Shown: positions 23,859 to 37,120 of the stretch, in pieces | How positions within the stretch are numbered: position 1 is the first letter of the stretch | Layout: each line of letters begins with the position of its first letter | From: Saccostrea echinata | Taxonomy: Eukaryota | Length of the DNA: 64,000 nucleotides | Assembly (NCBI RefSeq): GCF_033153115.1 | Contig: NW_026889782.1 | Span: forward strand, 62,001 to 126,000 | Reading direction: 5' to 3' | The notes under the pieces: generated by a model | What the model saw: the letters and a program-made list of their open reading frames with translations, nothing else | Databases searched by the model: none | What the model was told of the DNA's origin: nothing | Position numbers and translations under genes: made by a program

Positions 23859-24542
23859 TTATATAGGTTGGTAAATGATCATCTCCTCACCCGGGAGGAT
23901 ACGAGACCTTAGTTGATACTCTCTGTTTTGTGTTGGTTCTAAACAAACATGCAAGTAACCGAAATTTGGTCGAGTTGCGGATTCGTATGCCGCTTTGAAA
24001 AAGGGGACCTGTCCTGGTAATATCTGAGATCCAAAAGTGATGATCTGTCTAGAATCACGGTAATTCTTAAACAAAATGATATTGAGGCAGTTCAATGAAA
24101 TGGTCCTTGCATATTTTCCCGGAGGATATAGGTTCTGGGACAACATCACTGTGGTCACGTTTCTGTGATGAGATGTCACCGTGAACAGATGTACACAGTC
24201 CTGAGATTGTGCAACTTGTAACATGAGATCATCCAGTATCAGTATGGTGTGATCCATACCCTCGGTGTACTGTTCTATGTCTTCTTTAGAAGGCAATCCT
24301 TGGTGTAATGATAAGTTTGGTATCGTCTGCACCATTTCCTCAAACATAGGTTGATGTTCAGAATAAGCATACACTATTCTATCCACAGGTATGGAAAACA
24401 TACCATTAGCGTTTTGTAAAAGTTTTTTAGTAAAATGCGTTTTTCCGCTTTGTGTACTACCACATATTAAAATGGTGGTAGGTGCAGAAAAAGGTAGCAA
24501 GGAACGGCTGTTCCACCATTTATTCATACTCTCTGTTTCCAT
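23859..24542 (-). CDS. A32/FtsK-like DNA packaging ATPase
   Basis: Walker A GSTQSGKT, Walker B ILILDD, SHHRN and LSQN motifs typical of Polinton ATPases. Confidence 0.95.
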   Translation of the reverse strand: METESMNKWWNSRSLLPFSAPTTILICGSTQSGKTHFTKKLLQNANGMFSIPVDRIVYAYSEHQPMFEEMVQTIPNLSLHQGLPSKEDIEQYTEGMDHTILILDDLMLQVAQSQDCVHLFTVTSHHRNVTTVMLSQNLYPPGKYARTISLNCLNIILFKNYRDSRQIITFGSQILPGQVPFFKAAYESATRPNFGYLHVCLEPTQNREYQLRSRILPGEEMIIYQPI

Positions 24543-24649
24543 GTTTCTCAGTCGCCAGACTTTTTCAAAATGAAGTTAGGTGCTATGTCACACACATATA
24601 AATATTTATTCAATTATAAAATAACTCCTGTATATACTTTTCATGATTT

Positions 24650-25117
24650 TTAATGATACATAAAATATTCATGCATAAAACTTTTTACAAAACCATCATT
24701 AGATTGAATGTCATTAGAAAATAAATCATACACATGACTGAACGAGTTTTTTAAACACAATCTTGCAATTAGAAATACTAATACATAAAGTCCACATAAG
24801 TCGGAATTACGAGGTTGAAGTCGAATGGATTTGAAACGACAATCAACACTGTTCATTTTCACAAAGTTTTGTATATCTTGACTGTAATCAGCTGGGGATT
24901 TTCCAAGGCTGTCGAAGAACTCTGCTTGCAATGGACTGTACACGATGATTGTCACCCAGTGTTCTCCGGGTAATGGTAAAGGTTGTGTATTGACGATAAA
25001 GGCGCTTGGAAATTCTGTAACCCTTTGAGGCAATATATTACTAGCAAATACACCTTTGACGTAACGTCTTAAGCATGGATTTGTCTTCACCATATTTAAA
25101 AGATGCGTTGAATTCTT
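24650..25117 (-). CDS. Adenain-like cysteine maturation protease
   Basis: GEHWV (His), FFDSLG (Asp), LQP..SDLCGLY (Gln/Cys). Annotated ATG at 25093; probable original start at 25117 (now AAG). Confidence 0.93.
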   Translation of the reverse strand, partial: KNSTHLLNMVKTNPCLRRYVKGVFASNILPQRVTEFPSAFIVNTQPLPLPGEHWVTIIVYSPLQAEFFDSLGKSPADYSQDIQNFVKMNSVDCRFKSIRLQPRNSDLCGLYVLVFLIARLCLKNSFSHVYDLFSNDIQSNDGFVKSFMHEYFMYH

Positions 25118-26430
25118 GGTTGAATGTAGTTAATGTCACGTGATTTGTCAACCTCAAGTAGGGATGAAAAAGTTGCAAATACAATGGCATTGACAGCTTT
25201 GGTTGTTGCTTGTTTGAATTTCAATTCCAGTCTGGTGTTTCCCCTACAAATCAGGTTTAAATACTCTTCTCCAAATCCACAAGGATCTATCGTAAACACA
25301 AAAAGTGAGTATCCATTTCCAAAATTATCACGAGAGATAATCAGTCCAGCATCGTTGTTCCATTTCCCAGAGGCTTCAAATAAACGAGCATAGGCGGCTG
25401 AATAATGTCCTGCCGTAAAGTCCGTCTTCAGTGGTCTTCCAGGTACGCTTTCTCCGTTGACGTATATCCCGATATCTGTTAATCCCATATGCTCGAAATT
25501 AAAGGGGTTGGCTGTGTAATCCCCATTCACAGCTTTCTGGTCCACCAGAGCCACCACGATTCGATCGGGTACTGCCTGTGGAAATATATTGTCCCAGTAA
25601 AACTCGGTAGATCCTTTGGGTATGGTATTCATTTTTAGTTCATTTCTTGATATGGTATACTTTACAGGGGTGGATTCGATCTGTTTACTATGGTTCAGCA
25701 GAACACCTGGATCAACACGTACTTTGGCCACTTTATACACGACGTCTTGTAATTCTAACTTGTAGGCTGGTGTAGAAGCGGCAGACATGATGACAAAAGG
25801 GGCACTGGATCTAAAGAGTTTGATGTAGATGTCTACTCCGTTTATCAAGTATTTATCTATATCAAAGATATCTTCCATCAGGTTCCCTTCCAGCTCAAAG
25901 ACTTTACTTTCCTGAGTGTAACCATACCGCAGGACCAGACCGGCATTGCCTCCATTGTATGCATTACCGTCGGCAAGATTTCCCTCGTCTTTAAAGAACA
26001 GCTCAGATTGTTTTTGTGAATTGAGTTCGTCTTTCCCGCTGAACAAAATTGTTTTGAGATAAGCCTTCCACGGGTAGTTATTGGTATTGAAAGAGACCAA
26101 TTTGTTGTTCAAGTAGACATCCATTTGGGAGAACATGCTTTGTAGAGGTAAGTTCACTACACCAGTTTCTTCGTTTGCTGCCAGTGCCGATCCATCTGCT
26201 TTCAGAATTCGGGCTTTTACGTATAGTTTACTTCTTTTTAAATCAATGTATTCTGCTCCTGAGCCTGACACTACGATCTCAATGGGTGTGTCAGACACTC
26301 CTATGCTAGAAATTGGTCTTGCTTCTGTAAAATACACTTTCTCGACCGCTACTTGGTTTGTGGGGGATGCAAAAAGAGAGAGTTCCATTGGTTGTGCTAT
26401 GTCTTTATTATCACTGCTTAAAAATGCCAT
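25096..26430 (-). CDS. Major capsid protein (double jelly-roll, Polinton PY)
   Basis: 444 aa; ELSLF..P, YIDLKRSKLYVK, NNYPWKAYL, P.RIVVALV..AVNG..NPFNF motifs; position between protease and minor capsid. Confidence 0.92.
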   Translation of the reverse strand: MAFLSSDNKDIAQPMELSLFASPTNQVAVEKVYFTEARPISSIGVSDTPIEIVVSGSGAEYIDLKRSKLYVKARILKADGSALAANEETGVVNLPLQSMFSQMDVYLNNKLVSFNTNNYPWKAYLKTILFSGKDELNSQKQSELFFKDEGNLADGNAYNGGNAGLVLRYGYTQESKVFELEGNLMEDIFDIDKYLINGVDIYIKLFRSSAPFVIMSAASTPAYKLELQDVVYKVAKVRVDPGVLLNHSKQIESTPVKYTISRNELKMNTIPKGSTEFYWDNIFPQAVPDRIVVALVDQKAVNGDYTANPFNFEHMGLTDIGIYVNGESVPGRPLKTDFTAGHYSAAYARLFEASGKWNNDAGLIISRDNFGNGYSLFVFTIDPCGFGEEYLNLICRGNTRLELKFKQATTKAVNAIVFATFSSLLEVDKSRDINYIQPRIQRIF

Positions 26431-26432
26431 TT

Positions 26433-26948
26433 TTACAGCTTGAAGATACTTCTGTAGCTGTCAATATTAAATTCTTTCTTTTTTCTAGACTGTGTTTTCT
26501 TGCTTGGCACTCGTCGCTGTTTCTTAACAGACGTCTTTTTCTTTTCTCCGGTGGTCTTTCTTTGTTTGGGTTTAGATGCCTGTTTTCTCCTCGGAGTTTG
26601 AGATGTTGTTGGCTTCAATTTCTTTGAAGGAATGACAGAAGATTCTGTACGTGGCCTTTTTATACTTCCCTGCACTTTGACAAATGGAGCTCCCTCTTTT
26701 ACATCCTTGGCATGTTCCACTTTAGCTCTTTCCTCCACGGCAGCTACAGGGGTCACTTGAGTGCTGTTTTCTACTGATTCTAACTGTGAGTGAGGCCTCA
26801 GTGGAATGACATAAGACTTGTAACTTCTCACACCTCTCCCAATTTGTTTTGGTTTGTATTTGTAAGGGTTGAATTTTTTCTCTGCCATGTTCTTGTAGAA
26901 AGCTTCCCATATTTTGGGATCGCTGATGTAGGTCTGACTATTCATCAT
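26433..26948 (-). CDS. Lys/Arg-rich putative DNA-condensing core protein
   Basis: 171 aa, very basic C-terminal half, QIGRG motif; ATGA overlap with the upstream minor capsid stop. Confidence 0.75.
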   Translation of the reverse strand: MMNSQTYISDPKIWEAFYKNMAEKKFNPYKYKPKQIGRGVRSYKSYVIPLRPHSQLESVENSTQVTPVAAVEERAKVEHAKDVKEGAPFVKVQGSIKRPRTESSVIPSKKLKPTTSQTPRRKQASKPKQRKTTGEKKKTSVKKQRRVPSKKTQSRKKKEFNIDSYRSIFKL

Positions 26949-27367
26949 AAAACGTAAGGAAACTTTTTGAAATGAAGTGTTACAGTCACCGGTCCGTTTA
27001 AAAATGAAACTAAATTTCCTTCTCTGTCCGTTATATATATAGCAATCTGCTGTAATTGGCCAATTTTAACTGGAATGTAATAAGGTAGTGTGTAAGTGAT
27101 ATTTTCTGGTTTCTCTCCCAGGTATATGCGTCTTAGGAGGGGTGCCTCTTTCCCCCCAATAATTGTTTCCTCACAAATATCGCAACACACAAACAATTCT
27201 GATTTCTTCTTAGATGAAATCCAGCTCTCTGTAGAAAATTCTGTCAAGGCAACAGTCCAATATCCGTCAAATTGAATCTGTTTATTTAATTGAACTCGGA
27301 AGCAATGGGGTTTATTTTCAAAATATTCAGAGCTGTCCGTAGACGTCAATACCATTCGAACGCTCAT
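26945..27367 (-). CDS. Minor capsid / penton-like protein (single jelly-roll)
   Basis: LTS..S.EYF.N....F.V.L, W.VAL.E, LFVCCDI......G....LLR, PYYIPV, VTLHFKK pattern. Likely start is MSVRM at 27367. Confidence 0.85.
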   Translation of the reverse strand: MSVRMVLTSTDSSEYFENKPHCFRVQLNKQIQFDGYWTVALTEFSTESWISSKKKSELFVCCDICEETIIGGKEAPLLRRIYLGEKPENITYTLPYYIPVKIGQLQQIAIYITDREGNLVSFLNGPVTVTLHFKKFPYVL

Positions 27368-27402
27368 CTTGAATAGAGAGAAATTGCAGAAAATGGTGGC
27401 TT

Positions 27403-28561
27403 TTATTGTTTTTCGAGAGAACTCTCTGGAATCCATGAATTAAATTTCTTGGGCCATCCTTCCCATTTAACATAAACTTCATTGGTTGTACCACGACGCC
27501 TTCTTTTAAGTATTTTCTCCACTCTATAAGAAACATCTTCTGACTTTACGACTTTTTGAAGCTCAGACTCGTAGAAAGTACCTTCTATAGGGTCATCTGC
27601 CAAATCTTTTACTTTGTACACAGGTACTTGACCTCTTTTGTATCTTTCACTCACTTTAAAAAACTCTTCTGTCCATTTCTGCTGGTAGTCTCTTTGGAAA
27701 GGGTGTTTTAGCTGTGATATTCTGACATTATCTCCAATTTTTAATTTGAAAAAGGGTTTTACTCTTTTTTGCACTTTTTTTTTGCTTGAGTTTTTAGGCT
27801 GGTTCAGATCGTTTTTTGCCAGGTCTGGTTTTGTTTTCCCCGACAGATAAGCCGCTAGTCTTATTTCATCGGCATTCTCTTGCTTAACATTGGCTGGAGC
27901 ATTCCCCCCTAATGATCTGTGAGGTCTATTGTTGTAACTTTTCACCAAGTCTTGCAAGACATTCACAAAGCGGTAAGTTCGGTTCTTCATAAAATAACGA
28001 TACATTAGGTTCTTCATGGTACGAATAACCCTCTCGGCATAGTTTGCTTTTGTTTCATTTTGAGTGTACATGACGTTTATTCCCTCTTTCTTCAGAAATG
28101 TCTTTACCCAACGATTTTTAAATTCACTACCCTTATCTGTTCTAAGGGTCTTAGGTTTTCGTCCTCTTTGGAAAACTGATTTTAAACCGTCAACAATGTT
28201 TTGATGATGTTTATTTTTTAAGGGGATTATAAATAAATATCGGCTAAATATGTCAATAAGCACTAATAAGAATTTATAACCATCGTTATGGGATGCGATG
28301 TTTGAAACGTCTGCCAAGTCACCATCCCACATAGAATCGATCGTGTTCACTATCACCTTTGAACGCGGAAATTGTTTTACGAATGGGTTTATACAGACTA
28401 TAAGAATCTTCATTGTTTAAAAACTGTCTTATCCTTCGTCTACCAATCTTGTATTTGCCTTCCTTTTTAACAGCCTGATATAATTTTTCAGGCCCTGCAT
28501 ATGCCCCCGGTTTACCGGGAGTGTAGTAGAGCTCCCTCAAGTAATCCGTGTAGTCTGACAT
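27403..28561 (-). CDS. Retroviral-like DDE integrase with C-terminal chromodomain; one frameshift near 28371-28378
   Basis: N-terminal YY.P..PGAYAG; catalytic WDGDL, RTDKGSEF, AERVIRT; chromodomain YRVEKILKRR...VKWEGWPKKFNSWIP. ORFs 28319-28561 and 27403-28413 join by removing one base. Confidence 0.93.
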
Positions 28562-28834
28562 ACTGGAACATACTAACGATCTCTCTTCGACAGTAACATT
28601 TTATATCATTGTAAAAAAAAATACATCGCACGTTTGGAACTAGTTTATTTTGATATTGTTAGAATAAAATGATAACACAANNNNNNNNNNNNNNNNNNNN
28701 NNNNNNNNNNNNNNNNNNNNNNNNNNNNNNNNNNNNNNNNNNNNNNNNNNNNNNNNNNNNNNNNNNNNNNNNNNNNNNNNNNNNNNNNNNNNNNNNNNNN
28801 NNNNNNNNNNNNNNAATTATTTTAGTGTTCATTG

Positions 28835-29818
28835 TCATTCAAGATCACTCTCGATGGTTTCCATGTCTGGTAAATCACCCGCGTTACATTCCATCGACAT
28901 GTTGTCTTGTGGGTCGTAGCCAAAGGGGGTACATTCGGGACAGCTTAACATTCCAAGTTGATTTTGATGAGACTCACTGAGCATGCAAAGTTCAACGTCC
29001 TTTAGTTCTGGAACATATTCATGCATCTCCTCGATGACATCTCTAAGTCTGACAAATTTGTTTTTGTTCAGAGTAACACCTTTCCTTGTAGGTATAGGTT
29101 CTTGAACATTTTCTGGCTTCCAGAAGTGTCTTATGTCCACTGTCGGATAGCCTGGTGATAATGAAACGAACACACCTCCACCAACATGCCACTGTGCTTC
29201 TTCATCCTCTTTTCCAGTATTGTCTATGTAGTCTTGAATATCTGGTAAAAGAGATTCAAACTTTAACCAACGGGCTAAAGGAAAGGTAACTCCCTTCTTG
29301 GTGGCAATGAAACGACCATGTGATTCTGCGAGGTGACGGATGTGAACGTAAATCTCCCCCTTGAAAGGCATGACGGTGAGGAATAGATCATTAAAGTCGT
29401 CCAAACTTATCCTACATCTTGGCTCCTGAGACTGTTGATGATCAGCTTTCTTTGATTCGTTTCTGGAACCTCCTCTTTCTTTAGTACTGACGACTAATGA
29501 TCTTGCCATGACCAGCTTCTTTTCGTACTCAGACTTTGTGTCATCATCCTTATTCATCAGGAGTCGGGATAAGTCAGCTTGATTGGCTTTCATCAATGCC
29601 GTTCTAAGCCCCATAAAAGCTCTCGAACCTCGACGTAAAATGATGCTGATCAATTTCCTGTTTTTGTCATAGCTGGTTTTCTCAGCGTCTATCTGTTGTC
29701 TCATTTCATCAGTAATTATGTTTGAGGCGTAAAGATGCCCCGCAACAGGAACAGCCATCATTTTCTTCACCAATGTTGAGTAGTTTGACTTAATCACGTC
29801 TTGATGTTTTTGCTCCAT
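28835..29818 (-). CDS. CARD - PC4 - PC4 - Cys/His Zn-finger protein
   Basis: The first ~90 aa fit a CARD pattern (VIKSNYSTLVKKM...HLYASNIIT.EM...I.AEKT...KNRKLISII.RRGSRAF..L..AL..NQ.DLS.LL). Two PC4/Sub1 repeats (V.PFKGEIYVHIR...TKKGVTF...W; VDIRHFW...PTRKGVTL). C-terminal C..SESHQNQ....SCPEC. Confidence 0.85.
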   Translation of the reverse strand: MEQKHQDVIKSNYSTLVKKMMAVPVAGHLYASNIITDEMRQQIDAEKTSYDKNRKLISIILRRGSRAFMGLRTALMKANQADLSRLLMNKDDDTKSEYEKKLVMARSLVVSTKERGGSRNESKKADHQQSQEPRCRISLDDFNDLFLTVMPFKGEIYVHIRHLAESHGRFIATKKGVTFPLARWLKFESLLPDIQDYIDNTGKEDEEAQWHVGGGVFVSLSPGYPTVDIRHFWKPENVQEPIPTRKGVTLNKNKFVRLRDVIEEMHEYVPELKDVELCMLSESHQNQLGMLSCPECTPFGYDPQDNMSMECNAGDLPDMETIESDLE

Positions 29819-29888
29819 CTTTGTTGACGATAAGGATCTCACAAGGAGATTTGCTCAAGACTGATGAAAATTTTCAAAATGTTACAAG

Positions 29889-30062
29889 TTTATATATGAT
29901 TTAAGTCACGTGGCTCGTGACTGTAGACTCCCCCATGACGTCAGTGACTGTAGACTCCCCTCATGACGTCAGTGACTGTAGACTCCCCCATGACGTCAGT
30001 GACTGTAGACTCCCCTTAGAATGCGACTTTTCTCTAAACTGACTGTAGAAATTTGATGACTG
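29889..30062 (-). promoter_or_regulatory. Putative promoter of the CARD-PC4 gene: TIR-like repeat with 3 CRE sites, E-box and TATA
   Basis: ~27-bp repeats GTGACTGTAGACTCCCCCATGACGTCA; TGACGTCA at 29936, 29964 and 29991; CACGTG at ~29907; TATATAAA (minus) at 29889-29896. Confidence 0.7.
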
Positions 30063-30090
30063 TAAAACACGCTGGCTGTATATTTTGGCA

Positions 30091-30306
30091 TTACAGATCT
30101 TTATGGGTGTCCAGGTTTTGTGCATGAGATTGAGTTATTATTTGTAAATGTTTCTCCAGTATAGGACTTAAAATTTTTGATGCATGATTTATTCTTCTTT
30201 TAAATCGATATCTGTCCAAAGCCATGGTCATCCATTCTCCCTTCCGATCTTCATAGGGAATAAGGATGATCGTTTTTTTGTCTGAAAATTTCACAGTCTT
30301 GTCCAT
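30091..30306 (-). CDS. DP71L/ICP34.5/PPP1R15(GADD34)-like PP1 regulatory subunit (eIF2alpha phosphatase adaptor)
   Basis: KTVKFS (RVxF) followed by RKGEW...ALDRYRFKRRI....ILSPIL, matching the RxGxWxxxAxDRxRFxRRI signature. TATATAAA at 30350-30357. Confidence 0.88.
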   Translation of the reverse strand: MDKTVKFSDKKTIILIPYEDRKGEWMTMALDRYRFKRRINHASKILSPILEKHLQIITQSHAQNLDTHKDL

Positions 30307-30350
30307 TATCCCTCTTCTTTGACAATTCTACATTTTATTCCTGCAACGCT

Positions 30351-30791
30351 TTATATATGATTTTGTGCTTTTAAAATAGATCCATCCATATGATCTACAG
30401 ATGCTTTTAAGTACTGCCACTGTGTTTTACTCAAGGTAATTCCTTCGTTCCCCGGTTTTCCAGACTGAAATCGTCGTATGTCAACCTGTATGGTGTCATT
30501 GGCACATATCATGGCATATACTTCGTTGGAGAGTGGGTACCGATCCACGTATGAACATGTTTTAATTACATCTTTTTTCAATGTAGGGCGTAAAACACAG
30601 TCTACTTGGGTAGGTTTTTTCTTCTCGTGTAAAACACTGACAGCGATGCACAAAGAAATAATAAGTACAATCGCAAAAAAGCTAGGTATTACAATCGCGA
30701 TTTTTTTCTTCAACTTCTCTTTTAACATCCCTTTGCACTCATTACCACAATCACTTGTTAGAAGTTCCATCATTACCATTTGTTCAGCCAT
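30351..30791 (-). CDS. Transmembrane protein with C-terminal PC4-like domain
   Basis: KKK followed by hydrophobic IAIVIPSFFAIVLIISLCIAVSVL; later VDIRRF...KPGNEGITLSKTQWQYL (PC4 signature). TATATAAA at 30832-30839. Confidence 0.75.
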   Translation of the reverse strand: MAEQMVMMELLTSDCGNECKGMLKEKLKKKIAIVIPSFFAIVLIISLCIAVSVLHEKKKPTQVDCVLRPTLKKDVIKTCSYVDRYPLSNEVYAMICANDTIQVDIRRFQSGKPGNEGITLSKTQWQYLKASVDHMDGSILKAQNHI

Positions 30792-30881
30792 CTTTAAACA
30801 AAATGTTTTTGCTAGACTACTGCATTGCACATTTATATACATATGACCTCCGTGGGCGGGGTTTTGGAAAACCCCCTGATG

Positions 30882-31145
30882 TCAACTTGAACTGTACAAA
30901 TCAGATTCTCTTAAGACCTGTGGAAAGTATTTTTTCGGCATAACCCTACGTTTCAATATGTATTCTTCAGATCCCCAGCTGTCTGCAACGTCATAACCAT
31001 TTTTCATTTTTTCCTTGAAATCAACAATGCAATCTTCCTTTCTGTCAAACCATTGACTTTCTTGTAAAGTCCATTTCTTTTCATTTCTTCTTAAAGCATT
31101 CCAGGCTAAAATTTTCCATTTGTACTGCTTTCCCTGAGTTGCCAT
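30882..31145 (-). CDS. Trp-rich hypothetical protein (87 aa), first ORF inside the right TIR
   Basis: ATG GCA start, co-oriented with its neighbours; no recognisable domain. Confidence 0.55.
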   Translation of the reverse strand: MATQGKQYKWKILAWNALRRNEKKWTLQESQWFDRKEDCIVDFKEKMKNGYDVADSWGSEEYILKRRVMPKKYFPQVLRESDLYSSS

Positions 31146-31201
31146 CGTTATTACAAGGCAACTGAGATTTACAAGGTATTTATTCTTATTTTTTAAAAAT
31201 G

Positions 31202-31451
31202 TCAGTGACTGTAGACTCCCCATGACTGTAAAATCGTATGACCTCTAATGTTTGGAAAACCCCATGACGTCAGTGACTGTAGACTCCCTGACTGTAGACT
31301 CACTCTTTGCACTAAGGGAACCCATGACGTCATTGACTGTAGACTCCACCCTTGACTGTGACCTCTATTTTGACCTTTGTGGGTGGGGTCTGGAAAAACC
31401 CATGACGTCATCCTGACTGTAGACTGACTGTTCTCTGTCCCCCTTACTACT
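31202..31451 (-). repeat. Polinton right terminal inverted repeat
   Basis: Reverse complement of the left TIR: 60 bp perfect, ~250 bp imperfect. Confidence 0.95.
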
Positions 31452-32502: not shown

Positions 32503-35199
32503 CCAGAAGTCTCTGATGAGACTGTAGCTCTACTGGTCTGTTTGTATAACAAAAGAAAAGTAGCACTTGGATTTGAAACATTGCAACATGCAACAATAAA
32601 TAGAATTATGTATCTTAATGTAGTCTACTTTTGTGACAAGTTATATTGAAATCAAATGAAAACTAGGAGTAGTAGCGTTTTGAAAGTATTTCACGGAAAT
32701 TTCTATTTTTAGTACCGGTAACCATGACAACACCATTCACCCAAATAAAAAAACAGAAATACATATTATGTATCGTAGTGTATTCTAACTGTGTGCCAAA
32801 TTAGATTGAAATCAGACCAAAATTGTAGGAGGAGTAACGTTTTAAAGGAATTTCACAGAAATTTCTATTTTAAGTAACCATGGCAACACTGTTCATCGAA
32901 TTCAAAAACCAATGCAATAAATTATGTATCTTAGTATAGTCTTCTTGTATGCCTAATTATATTAGAAGCAGACTAAAACTGTAGCAGGAGTAGTGTTTTA
33001 AAGGAATTTCACAGAAATTTCTATTTTTAGTAACCATGGCAACACCGTCCATCGAAATCAAAAACCGATGCACTAAATTATGTATCTTAGTGTAGTCTAC
33101 TTGTGTGCCAAGTTATATTGAAATCGGACCAAAACTGTAGGAGGAGTAGCGTTTTAAAGGAATTTCACAGAAATTTCTATTTTTAGTAACCATGGCAACA
33201 CCGTCCATCGAAATCAAAAACCGATGCACTAAATTATGTATCTTAGTGTAGTCTACTTGTGTGCCAAGTTATATTGAAATCGGACCAAAACTGTAGGAGG
33301 AGTAGCGTTTTAAAGGAATTTCACAGAAATTTCTATTTTTAGTAACCATGGCAACACCGTCCATCGAAATCAAAAACCGATGCACTAAATTATGTATCTT
33401 AGTGTAGTCTACTTGTGTGCCAAGTTATATTGAAATCGGACCAAAACTGTAGGAGGAGTAGCGTTTTAAAGGAATTTCACAGAAATTTCTATTTTTAGTA
33501 ACCATGGCAACACCGTCCATCGAAATCAAAAACCTATGCAATAAATTATGTATCTTAGTGTAGTCTACTTGTGTGCCAAGTTATATTGAAATCGGACCAA
33601 AACTGTAGGAGGAGTAGCGTTTTAAAGGAATTTCACAGAAATTTCTATTTTTAGTAACCATGGCAACACCGTCCATCGAAATCAAAAACCGATGCACTAA
33701 ATTATGTATCTTAGTGTAGTCTACTTGTGTGCCAAGTTATATTGAAATCGGACCAAAACTGTAGGAGGAGTAGCGTTTTAAAGGAATTTCACAGAAATTT
33801 CTATTTTTAGTAACCATGGCAACACCGTCCATCGAAATCAAAAACCGATGCACTAAATTATGTATCTTAGTGTAGTCTACTTGTGTGCCAAGTTATATTG
33901 AAATCGGACCAAAACTGTAGGAGGAGTAGCGTTTTAAAGGAATTTCACAGAAATTTCTATTTTTAGTAACCATGGCAACACCGTCCATCGAAATCAAAAA
34001 CCGATGCACTAAATTATGTATCTTAGTGTAGTCTACTTGTGTACCAAGTTATATTGAAATCGGACCAAAACTGTAGGAGGAGTAGCGTTTTAAAGGAATT
34101 TCACAGAAATTTCTATTTTTAGTAACCATGGCAACACCGTCCATCGAAATCAAAAACCGATGCACTAAATTATGTATCTTAGTGTAGTCTACTTGTGTGC
34201 CAAGTTATATTGAAATCGGACCAAAACTGTAGGAGGAGTAGCGTTTTAAAGGAATTTCACAGAAATTTCTATTTTTAGTAACCATGGCAACACCGTCCAT
34301 CGAAATCAAAAACCGATGCACTAAATTATGTATCTTAGTGTAGTCTACTTGTGTGCCAAGTTATATTGAAATCGGACCAAAACTGTAGGAGGAGTAGCGT
34401 TTTAAAGGAATTTCACAGAAATTTCTATTTTTAGTAACCATGGCAACACCGTCCATCGAAATCAAAAACCGATGCACTAAATTATGTATCTTAGTGTAGT
34501 CTACTTGTGTGCCAAGTTATATTGAAATCGGACCAAAACTGTAGGAGGAGTAGCGTTTTAAAGGAATTTCACAGAAATTTCTATTTTTAGTAACCATGGC
34601 AACACCGTCCATCGAAATCAAAAACCGATGCACTAAATTATGTATCTTAGTGTAGTCTACTTGTGTACCAAGTTATATTGAAATCGGACCAAAACTGTAG
34701 GAGGAGTAGCGTTTTAAAGGAATTTCACAGAAATTTCTATTTTTAGTAACCATGGCAACACCGTCCATCGAAATCAAAAACCGATGCACTAAATTATGTA
34801 TCTTAGTGTAGTCTACTTGTGTGCCAAGTTATATTGAAATCGGACCAAAACTGTAGGAGGAGTAGCGTTTTAAAGGAATTTCACAGAAATTTCTATTTTT
34901 AGTAACCATGGCAACACCGTCCATCGAAATCAAAAACCGATGCACTAAATTATGTATCTTAGTGTAGTCTACTTGTGTGCCAAGTTATATTGAAATCGGA
35001 CCAAAACTGTAGGAGGAGTAGCGTTTTAAAGGAATTTCACAGAAATTTCTATTTTTAGTAACCATGGCAACACCGTCCATCGAAATCAAAAACCGATGCA
35101 CTAAATTATGTATCTTAGTGTAGTCTACTTGTGTGCCAAGTTATATTGAAATCGGACCAAAACTGTAGGAGGAGTAGCGTTTTGAAAAATTGTTTACAG

Positions 35200-35234
<35 letters not shown>

Positions 35235-35295
35235 GACGGACGACGGACACCTTACTATCGCATAAGCTCTTCTGGTCTCTGACCAGTAGAGCTAA
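32503..35295 (+). mobile_element. HINE / pearl (CvA)-like element with 156-bp satellite array
   Basis: Subterminal IR TAGCTCTACTGGTC (32525) / GACCAGTAGAGCTA (35281); ~16 tandem 156-bp units; (ACAG/ACGG)n microsatellite at ~35196-35248; 3' hairpin CTGGTCTCTGACCAG. Confidence 0.88.
32715..35183 (+). repeat. 156-bp tandem repeat array, ~16 copies
   Basis: GTAACCATGGCAAC recurs every 156 bp (32874, 33030, 33186 ... 35058). Confidence 0.97.
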
Positions 35296-35949
35296 CAAAC
35301 AAAATCACTACTATTCAAAGTTGGGTAGATGCCTTTTTGATATTTTCAAGCATTTATCTTGCTAGGCACACTTCAGATATTCAGGGCCATATTGAAATAT
35401 ATGCACATGGTACGCCTATGCTAAAGCCGAAACACAAATGCTAACCGGCTTGAATATGAAATAAAATGTCAAAAAATACATCCATTTCATCCAAAAGCAC
35501 CACTTAAATGTTTCGATAACAATGTCAAAGGCTCATGCTCCAAACCCCCGTGTTTCTACCAGCATGCATGCATGAACTGCAACAAAGCCCATCCACTTAT
35601 ACACTGCTGGTCCTACCAGTCGACGCTAACTCAATTTTCAAGACCTAATCCCAACCATCCAATATCGAGCCAGCAAAATCATGAACAACAACCTAACATT
35701 AGGTTAAATCCAACTCATCCAATCGCGGGTCAGCAAAATTATACCCAACAATCCAACATTAATTTCTGACCCTATCGCCCAAAGCAATACCAGACACCAA
35801 GACCAAGATTTAACACGCCTAGGTTCTACTCCAATTTAGCTCCCAATACTTCAGAAATACCTAGCTCAGTATCCGCAAATTCAAGATGTCCAACTGTTAC
35901 TTAATGGATTTACATCTGGTTTTTATCTGAATTATGCAGGTCCAAGAGA

Positions 35950-37120
35950 CTTATTTACAAACAACCAGAGGAAAAGAAAGGTAGCAATTGGACTTGAAAC
36001 TTTGCAACAGGAAAAAATAGAGCAATTATCCTTGGTTTAGTCTGTTTTTGTGGCAAGATTTATTGCTATCAGACTAAAACTGTAGGAAGAGTAACATTTT
36101 AAAAGATTTTAACAGATTTTTTTTAATTTAAGTAACCATGGCAACATCATTCGTCAAAATAAAAAAAAATGTTAAGACAATTATGTATCTCAGTGTAGTG
36201 TATTTGCATGCCAAGTTACACTGAAATTAAGGCAAAACTATAGAAGGAGCAGCACTTTGAATGTATTTCACAGAAAACTGTATTTTTATTTAACCATGGC
36301 AACTCTTCACCAAAAACCAATGCACTGAATTATGTATCTTAGTGTAGTTTATTCGTGTGCCAAATTATAATGAAATCAAATGAAAACTGTAGGAGTAGCA
36401 TTTTAAAGGAATTTCACAGAAATTTCTATTTTCAGTAACCATTGCAACATTGTCTATCAAAATCAAAAACCGATGCACTGAATTATGTATCTTAGTGTAA
36501 TCTATTTGTGTGCCAAGTTATAATGAAATCAAATGAAAACTGTAGGAGGAGTAGCGTCTTAAAGGAATTTCACAGGAATTTCTATTTCTAGTAACCATGG
36601 CAACACCGTTCATTAAAATCAAAAACTGATGCACTAAATTATGTATCTTAGTGTAGTCTACTTGTGTACCAGTAATGAAATCTGACCCAAACTGTAGGGG
36701 AGTAGATTTTGAAAAATTCTTTGCACACATACGGACAGACAGACGCCGGACACCTTACTATTACATAAACTCTTCTTGTCTCTGACTGATTGATTGTTTA
36801 TTGTTTTACGTCCCATTCGAGAATATTTCACCAATATAAAGACGTCACCATATACCGGTGAAGGGTCTCAAATTTTGACCTTTACTCGGCACTTACGGAT
36901 ATTGAGTAGTGAAGGATCTTTATAGTGCCAACGCCTGTCGTGACACGGGACCTCGGTTTCTAAGGTCTCATACGAAGGACCCGCAACTTTCACTTCAAAG
37001 TGCCGAGGGCATGGCGAAGGAACAATTGTTACCCATTTTTTATCGACTTAGGTCAGTCACGGCCGAGATTCGAGCTCACGACCTCCCGATCACGTTCTGG
37101 TCTCTGACCAGTAGAGTTAA
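35950..37120 (+). mobile_element. Older HINE copy with ~4 diverged 156-bp units
   Basis: Same unit and 3' end as 32503-35295; SINE inserted in its 3' hairpin. Confidence 0.8.
36787..37094 (-). mobile_element. SINE family B, 5'-truncated
   Basis: Matches 55471-55819; TSD TTCT(T/G)GTCTCTGAC. Confidence 0.88.

Follow-up and report, generated by a model that had tools for sequence, protein, structure and literature searches.

The locus at 28835-29818 on the minus strand of the window (the whole stretch of 64,000 nucleotides of Saccostrea echinata DNA that was analysed) raises the question of why a single protein should join a CARD, a death-signalling domain of the host type, to a PC4-like nucleic-acid-binding core, and whether such a protein serves the oyster or a mobile element. 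The open reading frame runs without a stop and is organized as follows.

28835..29818, minus strand: CARD-PC4-PC4-Zn gene, 327 amino acids, intronless
29555..29818, minus strand: CARD, residues 1-88, six helices, net charge +7, dN/dS 0.18
29423..29548, minus strand: linker, residues 91-132, partly disordered (pLDDT <50 at 114-130), dN/dS 0.29
29219..29419, minus strand: PC4-like repeat 1, residues 134-200; F152, R161, K174 and K175 kept, non-aromatic A164 at the position of PC4 W89
29009..29200, minus strand: PC4-like repeat 2, residues 207-270; R230, W233, R245 and K246 kept, hairpin 2 residues shorter at the place of PC4 F77
28919..29008, minus strand: predicted zinc-binding tail with C278, H284, C293 and C296

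The N-terminal part matches the Pfam CARD family (PF00619) at residues 7-89 (E 1.1e-12; 48.2 bits against a curated cut-off of 23.9), and two further stretches match the PC4 family (PF02229; E 1.6e-13; 50.3 bits against a cut-off of 25). The two PC4-like repeats also align with each other, with a score of 54 that was reached by none of 1000 shuffles. In the full-length AlphaFold2 model, built on 63 relatives, six helices span residues 3-86 (pLDDT 79-97) and are followed by the partly disordered linker and two beta4-alpha repeats. The best structural match of the N-terminal model is the Apaf-1 CARD (Z 16.7, rmsd 1.0 over 89 residues); the CARDs of RIG-I, MDA5 and Apaf-1 score Z 13.2-16.7, CARD filaments are also among the matches, and death domains match less well (Z <9). 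Residues 131-274 find their best PDB match in repeats I-II of Pur-alpha (Z 10.4, rmsd 4.0 over 131 residues). Foldseek returned the same families, CARD and Pur-alpha, none of them at E<=0.001. Modelled alone on 96 rows, the core reaches a pLDDT of 95.3 and a pTM of 0.89, so a single-chain PC4 pseudo-dimer is well predicted. The tail reads C278-x5-H284-x8-C293-x2-C296, and its residues are kept in aligned relatives (C278 in 147/157, H284 in 146/153, C293 in 146/151, C296 in 146/147); the pattern, a predicted zinc-binding site, occurs in 193 of 224 proteins whose core is nearly complete. The original prediction of a death-fold N-terminus, a single-chain PC4 pseudo-dimer and a C-x5-H...CxxC tail within this frame is borne out by these results.

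Human PC4 contacts single-stranded DNA (ssDNA) through R70, R86, R100, K101, F77 and W89, and the loss of either aromatic residue abolishes binding (PMC4350104). Residues equivalent to R86, R100 and K101 are mostly basic among the aligned relatives in repeat 1 (R161 in 150/155, K174 in 143/160, K175 in 124/160) as well as in repeat 2 (R230 in 160/161, R245 in 142/161, K246 in 126/161). The F77 equivalent is present in repeat 1 only and the W89 equivalent in repeat 2 only: an aromatic residue occupies the W89 place of repeat 1 in just 2 of 156 rows, and in repeat 2 the F77 place falls in a gap, close to a conserved Y224. Since neither repeat has both stacking aromatics, any ssDNA binding by the core must differ in mode from that of PC4 or be weaker. 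PC4/Sub1 proteins in the strict sense carry F77 and W89 together in each subunit; judged from its sequence, the oyster core is not a PC4 orthologue in this sense. Single-chain (type I) PC4-like domains comprise beta4-alpha-linker-beta4-alpha on one chain; they are often asymmetric and gain symmetry via higher oligomers, as in Whirly, MRP1/2 and Pur-alpha (PMC7549692). The oyster core has the type I layout in the AlphaFold2 models and in its match to Pur-alpha, and it is asymmetric, like other single-chain PC4-like domains, because its F77 and W89 equivalents are split between the repeats.

Polintons are characterized by terminal inverted repeats with AGT-repeat ends and a 6-bp target duplication. 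The gene lies inside an element with both features.

7605..31451, no strand: Polinton/Maverick (adintovirus-like) with AGTAGT...ACTACT ends and the 6-bp target duplication ATAGAT on both sides
27403..28413, minus strand: rve integrase with chromodomain (rve E 2e-12), the gene directly downstream of the CARD-PC4 gene
23859..27436, minus strand: virion module with packaging ATPase, protease-like ORF, double jelly-roll capsid and two further ORFs
15681..23130, plus strand: protein-primed DNA polymerase B (PF03175, E 2e-20), in three ORF pieces in this copy
29917..30016, no strand: repeats upstream of the CARD-PC4 gene that contain three TGACGTCA palindromes, a motif shared with both terminal repeats
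30351..30842, minus strand: second PC4-like gene, one PC4 stretch (E 1.3e-4, below the cut-off) after a hydrophobic, membrane-like segment

The polymerase, integrase, packaging ATPase and capsid genes found between the terminal repeats agree with the Polinton setting that had been assumed for the gene, and contigs of other oysters diverge from the window sequence after 31451. The ATPase (Pox_A32) and capsid (DJR-like) assignments are weak Pfam matches below the cut-offs, and one ORF of the virion module we take to be a protease from its sequence and position. The CARD-PC4 gene is located 420 bp upstream of the integrase and is read in the direction of the capsid, protease-like and ATPase genes, against that of the polymerase. 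By its PF03175 match, the element belongs to the Alpha class in the terms of PMC8502044. The second PC4-like gene is found in a subset of both CARD-bearing and CARD-less elements; the ESM Atlas contained no match for it.

The motifs TGACGTCA and GACTGTAGAC are repeated in both terminal repeats (7605-7840 and 31200-31451) and upstream of the CARD-PC4 gene (29917-30016), and 10 of the 11 copies of TGACGTCA in the window fall within these stretches. Across loci, TGACGTCA precedes the gene in 16 of 44 with a CARD and in 6 of 19 without one. A conserved CRE-type promoter as a family trait is ruled out by its presence in just 16 of the 44 CARD loci.

The CARD of the element is kept under strong purifying selection, like the PC4 core. 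By a counting method applied to eight disjoint, not fully independent pairs, dN/dS is 0.18 for the CARD (Fisher p 5e-37 for purifying selection), 0.15 for each repeat, 0.13 for the tail motif, 0.29 for the linker and 0.41 for the acidic end. Pooled values for 27 of the 44 loci, picked by a start-and-motif pattern, lie at 0.10-0.15 in the CARD and at 0.21-0.32 in the linker; repeat 2 gave 1.05 in one low-divergence bin with few changes. RNA-type runs (24) share 6-35% of words with the sequence, and in four of them the contigs cover genes and spacers alike, come from related oysters and are indistinguishable from DNA.

The closest named proteins belong to Saccostrea echinata (98%), followed by other Saccostrea, Crassostrea/Magallana, Ostrea and Pinctada. 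A search of the window's genome, with 122 of 236 candidates scored, listed 126 matches, which are not copy numbers; among the matches listed, 42 are near full length with 56-100% identity (7 of these with a stop), and 50 cover the PC4-PC4-Zn part alone with 30-39% identity. An integrase adjoins the gene in 40 of 44 CARD-bearing loci (28/30 and 12/14); of 19 CARD-less loci drawn from those 50 matches, 18 likewise have one alongside. The integrases of CARD-bearing loci form one lineage (SH-aLRT 99, 37 versus 18 rows). A profile search yielded 330 clusters at E<=1e-30; relaxing the threshold to 1e-10 raised the number to 1686, with ordinary PC4 proteins likely among the weaker ones. An in-house CARD profile detected a CARD in 18 of the best 150 profile matches, a share biased upward because the search profile included CARD columns. 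Pfam analysis of 71 longer proteins revealed a CARD in 14 (9 above the cut-off) and no other death-fold family, the sole other folded oligomer module among them being a DEK_C plus 4xPC4 type; most CARD-less relatives have short or low-complexity N-termini. Neither the core alignment nor P0136 retrieved any free-virus contigs from IMG/VR; seven metagenome loci were matched, mostly short, one of them with integrase and capsid genes.

The PC4-PC4-Zn core is thus a widespread Polinton gene that mostly occurs without a CARD, and the CARD is a derived add-on, not needed for the basic job, because most related Polintons do without it. The original prediction had allowed that related Polintons might lack the CARD and that the fusion might be a neutral one-off. 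The former holds for most of them; the latter is ruled out by the selection on the CARD and by the spread of the fusion over many lineages, with oyster, mussel and abalone proteins. CARD-PC4 proteins are present in three species of Mytilus and in Haliotis rubra, the latter with half a CARD.

A further 20.7-kb Polinton, of a distant class, was observed at C57:6082026-6102763 (L136, L051, L031); its 382-bp terminal inverted repeats are 97% alike. Its polB is unmatched by that of the window, and it ends with a CARD-PC4-PC4 gene without the zinc tail, a form also found among Ostrea edulis and Saccostrea cucullata proteins. In the core tree (138 rows after 23 rows of unknown CARD state were dropped) the CARD label needs five changes, and a single clade of CARD-bearing cores is rejected (AU p 0.00024) on 46 rows chosen after seeing the first core tree, with at least three groups forced. 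The sequences therefore suggest that the CARD was gained or swapped repeatedly, by capture and domain swapping, since the CARD-bearing cores do not form one clade. An old fusion followed by many losses may underlie the same pattern.

The CARD tree comprises 24 element and 25 host CARDs over 93 columns, with caspase CARDs split by introns left out. Element CARDs form three groups. Sequences from oyster, mussel and abalone come together in the main one (16 rows, 99/95), whose weak sister (81/83), a host ORF of 91 aa made up of a CARD alone (L054:4898-5173, contig C29), is the closest host relative of the element CARD. One relative of this ORF was found, about 35 kb downstream of it contain no caspase motif, and it is a candidate oyster counterpart of ICEBERG/COP-type decoys. 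We consider capture of the CARD from a host gene likely, although the sister branch has weak support (81/83 on 93 columns). A search for the donor with the CARD profile scored 7992 candidates, in which it found no named host gene; almost all of the 74 proteins that it gave are CARD-PC4. A host gene with introns was ruled out as an identity for the locus, the gene being intronless and inside the terminal inverted repeats. Long open frames of 300-510 aa make up a host family in which the CARD comes first, then CxxC and a further helical repeat; this family forms its own clade in the CARD tree (L105, L106, L108, L109, L110, L114, L115 and L122).

From the observed domains, setting, selection and spread we infer, with a little less than even confidence, that the gene encodes the ssDNA-binding protein (SSB) of the Polinton together with a CARD decoy that would dampen host death or immune signals. 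Strand-displacement synthesis by the protein-primed polymerase would expose ssDNA, the PC4 core would coat it, and this abundant replication protein could be a cheap carrier for a decoy. A CARD without a catalytic or signalling domain may compete for host CARDs, as iridovirus CARD-only proteins do; it would bind initiator caspases or adaptors without activating them, and the cell would stay alive during element replication. The SSB role is suggested because viruses that have a protein-primed polymerase often carry a gene for a non-OB SSB of their own (PMC4889955). The decoy role is suggested because the CARD is dispensable in most lineages, the protein has no effector domain, and there are viral anti-apoptotic precedents: the CARD of a grouper iridovirus is an inhibitor of apoptosis (PMC4457926), a bivalve-like CARD-RHIM gene was acquired by a cockle iridovirus (PMC12452177), and adintoviruses carry Bcl2 and IAP homologues (PMC8502044). 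That most relatives have no CARD is easier to reconcile with an add-on directed at the host than with a component of replication. MAVS is disfavoured as the one target, because the abalone protein has part of a related CARD and abalone genomes are reported to lack MAVS (PMC11103948).

The split stacking aromatics speak against the SSB role, and a decoy engaged in an arms race might change its surface fast, whereas this CARD is uniformly conserved, which also fits self-binding. A protein tied to nuclear DNA is, moreover, poorly placed for cytoplasmic targets; the CARD, net basic (+7) in the oyster lineage, could serve DNA binding; and the viral decoys known so far are unfused CARD-only proteins, a precedent that does not account for the fusion. 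The fusion and the even conservation are better accounted for if the CARD is a self-assembly module, with CARD-CARD contacts joining SSBs into a cooperative filament on displaced strands and no anti-host role. The gain of symmetry via higher oligomers in single-chain PC4-like domains (PMC7549692), the asymmetry of the core in its aromatics and the CARD filaments among the fold matches point the same way; a two-copy CARD self-association prediction (score 0.00) speaks neither for nor against it. Nevertheless, we regard self-assembly as rather unlikely, as most relatives function with short or low-complexity N-termini in place of a CARD, and the repeated choice of a CARD, with no folded oligomer module other than the DEK_C plus 4xPC4 type among the 71 proteins, points to something specific to death-fold signalling.

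The sensor-like layout with its flexible linker would also suit a replication-coupled trigger, in which ssDNA clusters the CARDs and host CARD assemblies then lead to NF-kB signalling or cell death that favours the element through survival or particle release. A precedent is equine herpesvirus v-E10, a CARD protein of viral origin that switches on NF-kB, JNK and p38 (PMC2198798) and is also a fold match. The TGACGTCA motifs in the terminal repeats and upstream of 16 CARD loci would fit such a switch, but they are missing from the other 28 and present in CARD-less loci, and a death trigger would be costly for a germ-line element with dozens of matches. E10 signals through added membrane targeting, which is absent from the oyster protein, and on the whole we hold a trigger to be improbable. 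The same may be said of a core that acts as a PC4-like transcription cofactor or RNA binder for element genes, not as a replication SSB, with the CARD bringing in a partner from the host or the element. PC4 acts as a coactivator, PC4-like folds bind both RNA and DNA (PMC4350104, PMC7549692), the best whole-core match, Pur-alpha, is a DNA/RNA binder, the gene is colinear with the integrase and virion genes and away from polB, and knockdown of the iridovirus CARD lowered other viral transcripts (PMC4457926). However, the second PC4-like gene would then be the sole other SSB candidate recognised in the element. Finally, the CARD could be a neutral passenger, or the gene a domesticated host sensor and not an element gene, as a mussel cluster with members in three Mytilus species and the 4 of 44 CARD loci without a nearby integrase might indicate. 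This we judge very improbable, and for the oyster copies largely refuted, by the dN/dS of the CARD across element copies, by the position of the gene inside elements bounded by terminal inverted repeats in the window and on contig C57, and by the single element lineage of the CARD-bearing integrases.

Among known systems, the best viral fold match to the core is the adintovirus MOSUB (UniProt A0A5H3CIS2 and A0A5H3CT48; E 3.4e-7, TM 0.67, 174 columns), likewise a gene of PC4/MoSub1 fold in a Polinton-type element; it differs in showing 13-16% identity to the core, entry lengths of 197-203 aa and no visible CARD, and it is compared by fold alone. The MOSUB label stands in Supplementary Fig. S2 of PMC8502044, and 'MOSUB' was not found in the main text of Polinton papers by our literature search. 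By this label a PC4-fold gene in Polinton-type elements was already annotated, the match being by fold only. The C-terminal domain of human PC4/Sub1, MoSub1 and the phage T5 PC4-like protein share PF02229 (found twice in the oyster core) and the R86, R100 and K101 equivalents; they are two-chain homodimers (type II), in contrast to the oyster protein with its two repeats on one chain, split aromatics, CHCC tail and CARD. Pur-alpha I-II shares the single-chain unit at 12% identity, but the oyster sequence is PC4-type, not PUR-type, and has no third repeat.

The iridovirus CARD-only protein GIV-CARD, the cockle iridovirus CARD-RHIM and herpesvirus E10 are, like the oyster domain, virus-borne CARDs without a catalytic domain, and the CARDs of lymphocystis and cod iridoviruses match it at TM 0.74-0.76 of the target. 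None of these viral CARDs is fused to a nucleic-acid-binding domain, whereas the oyster CARD is followed by a 240-residue C-terminal part and is not a CARD-only decoy of the GIV-CARD type. With identities of 13-18%, there is no sign of descent shared with the viral CARDs beyond the fold. RIG-I, MDA5 and Apaf-1 also place an N-terminal CARD fold before a nucleic-acid-binding part; unlike them, the oyster protein has no helicase, NB-ARC or autoinhibitory domain and is encoded by a parasite, not by the host. It resembles a nucleic-acid sensor in its architecture alone.

Literature on PC4 and CARD in Polintons/Mavericks, adintoviruses and bivalve Polintons and on Polinton SSBs, with most subscription papers outside its scope, contained no paper on a CARD-PC4 fusion, and a term look-up in Polinton papers returned no mention of a PC4 or CARD domain. 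The architecture itself is present in an ESM Atlas cluster of 61 members (PC4 in 100%, CARD in 95%), mostly from Mollusca. The gene is hence a selected, undescribed fusion of two known kinds of part, with an architecture already in automatic resources. It provides a concrete candidate for the ssDNA-binding protein of Polintons, in a large family that our literature searches met as a map label alone. Selection to keep a host-type death-signalling domain argues that the elements meet the cell-death or immune machinery of the oyster as active parasites. We speculate, while doubting that so broad a picture will hold, that the ssDNA-binding protein of mollusc Polintons repeatedly acquired a CARD, that the fusion travelled between distant element classes, and that CARDs lined up on ssDNA form a mirror image of a sensor platform, capturing or firing host signalling when and where the element replicates. 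Molluscan Apaf-1 is reported to have no CARD (PMC5550854); given this, a host partner of the element CARD would be a direct lead to caspase-9 activation in molluscs.

Several peculiarities of this copy of the element were observed. The polB gene has an apparent GT-AG intron after the YEFYG motif (window 18660-21528), and inside it lies a 2.7-kb insert (18764-21467) that shows a CCTGG duplication and has short inverted ends; a frame break follows near 22400. The element with its flanks (window 5395-32809) is 99% identical to a stretch on contig C6 near 13.70 Mb; as this identity includes the flanks, the two represent either two haplotypes or a single insertion that was copied along with the surrounding DNA. 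Beside the right end of the element, a 156-bp repeat array occupies window positions 32600-36700, and inverted copies of it are located near 300-860.
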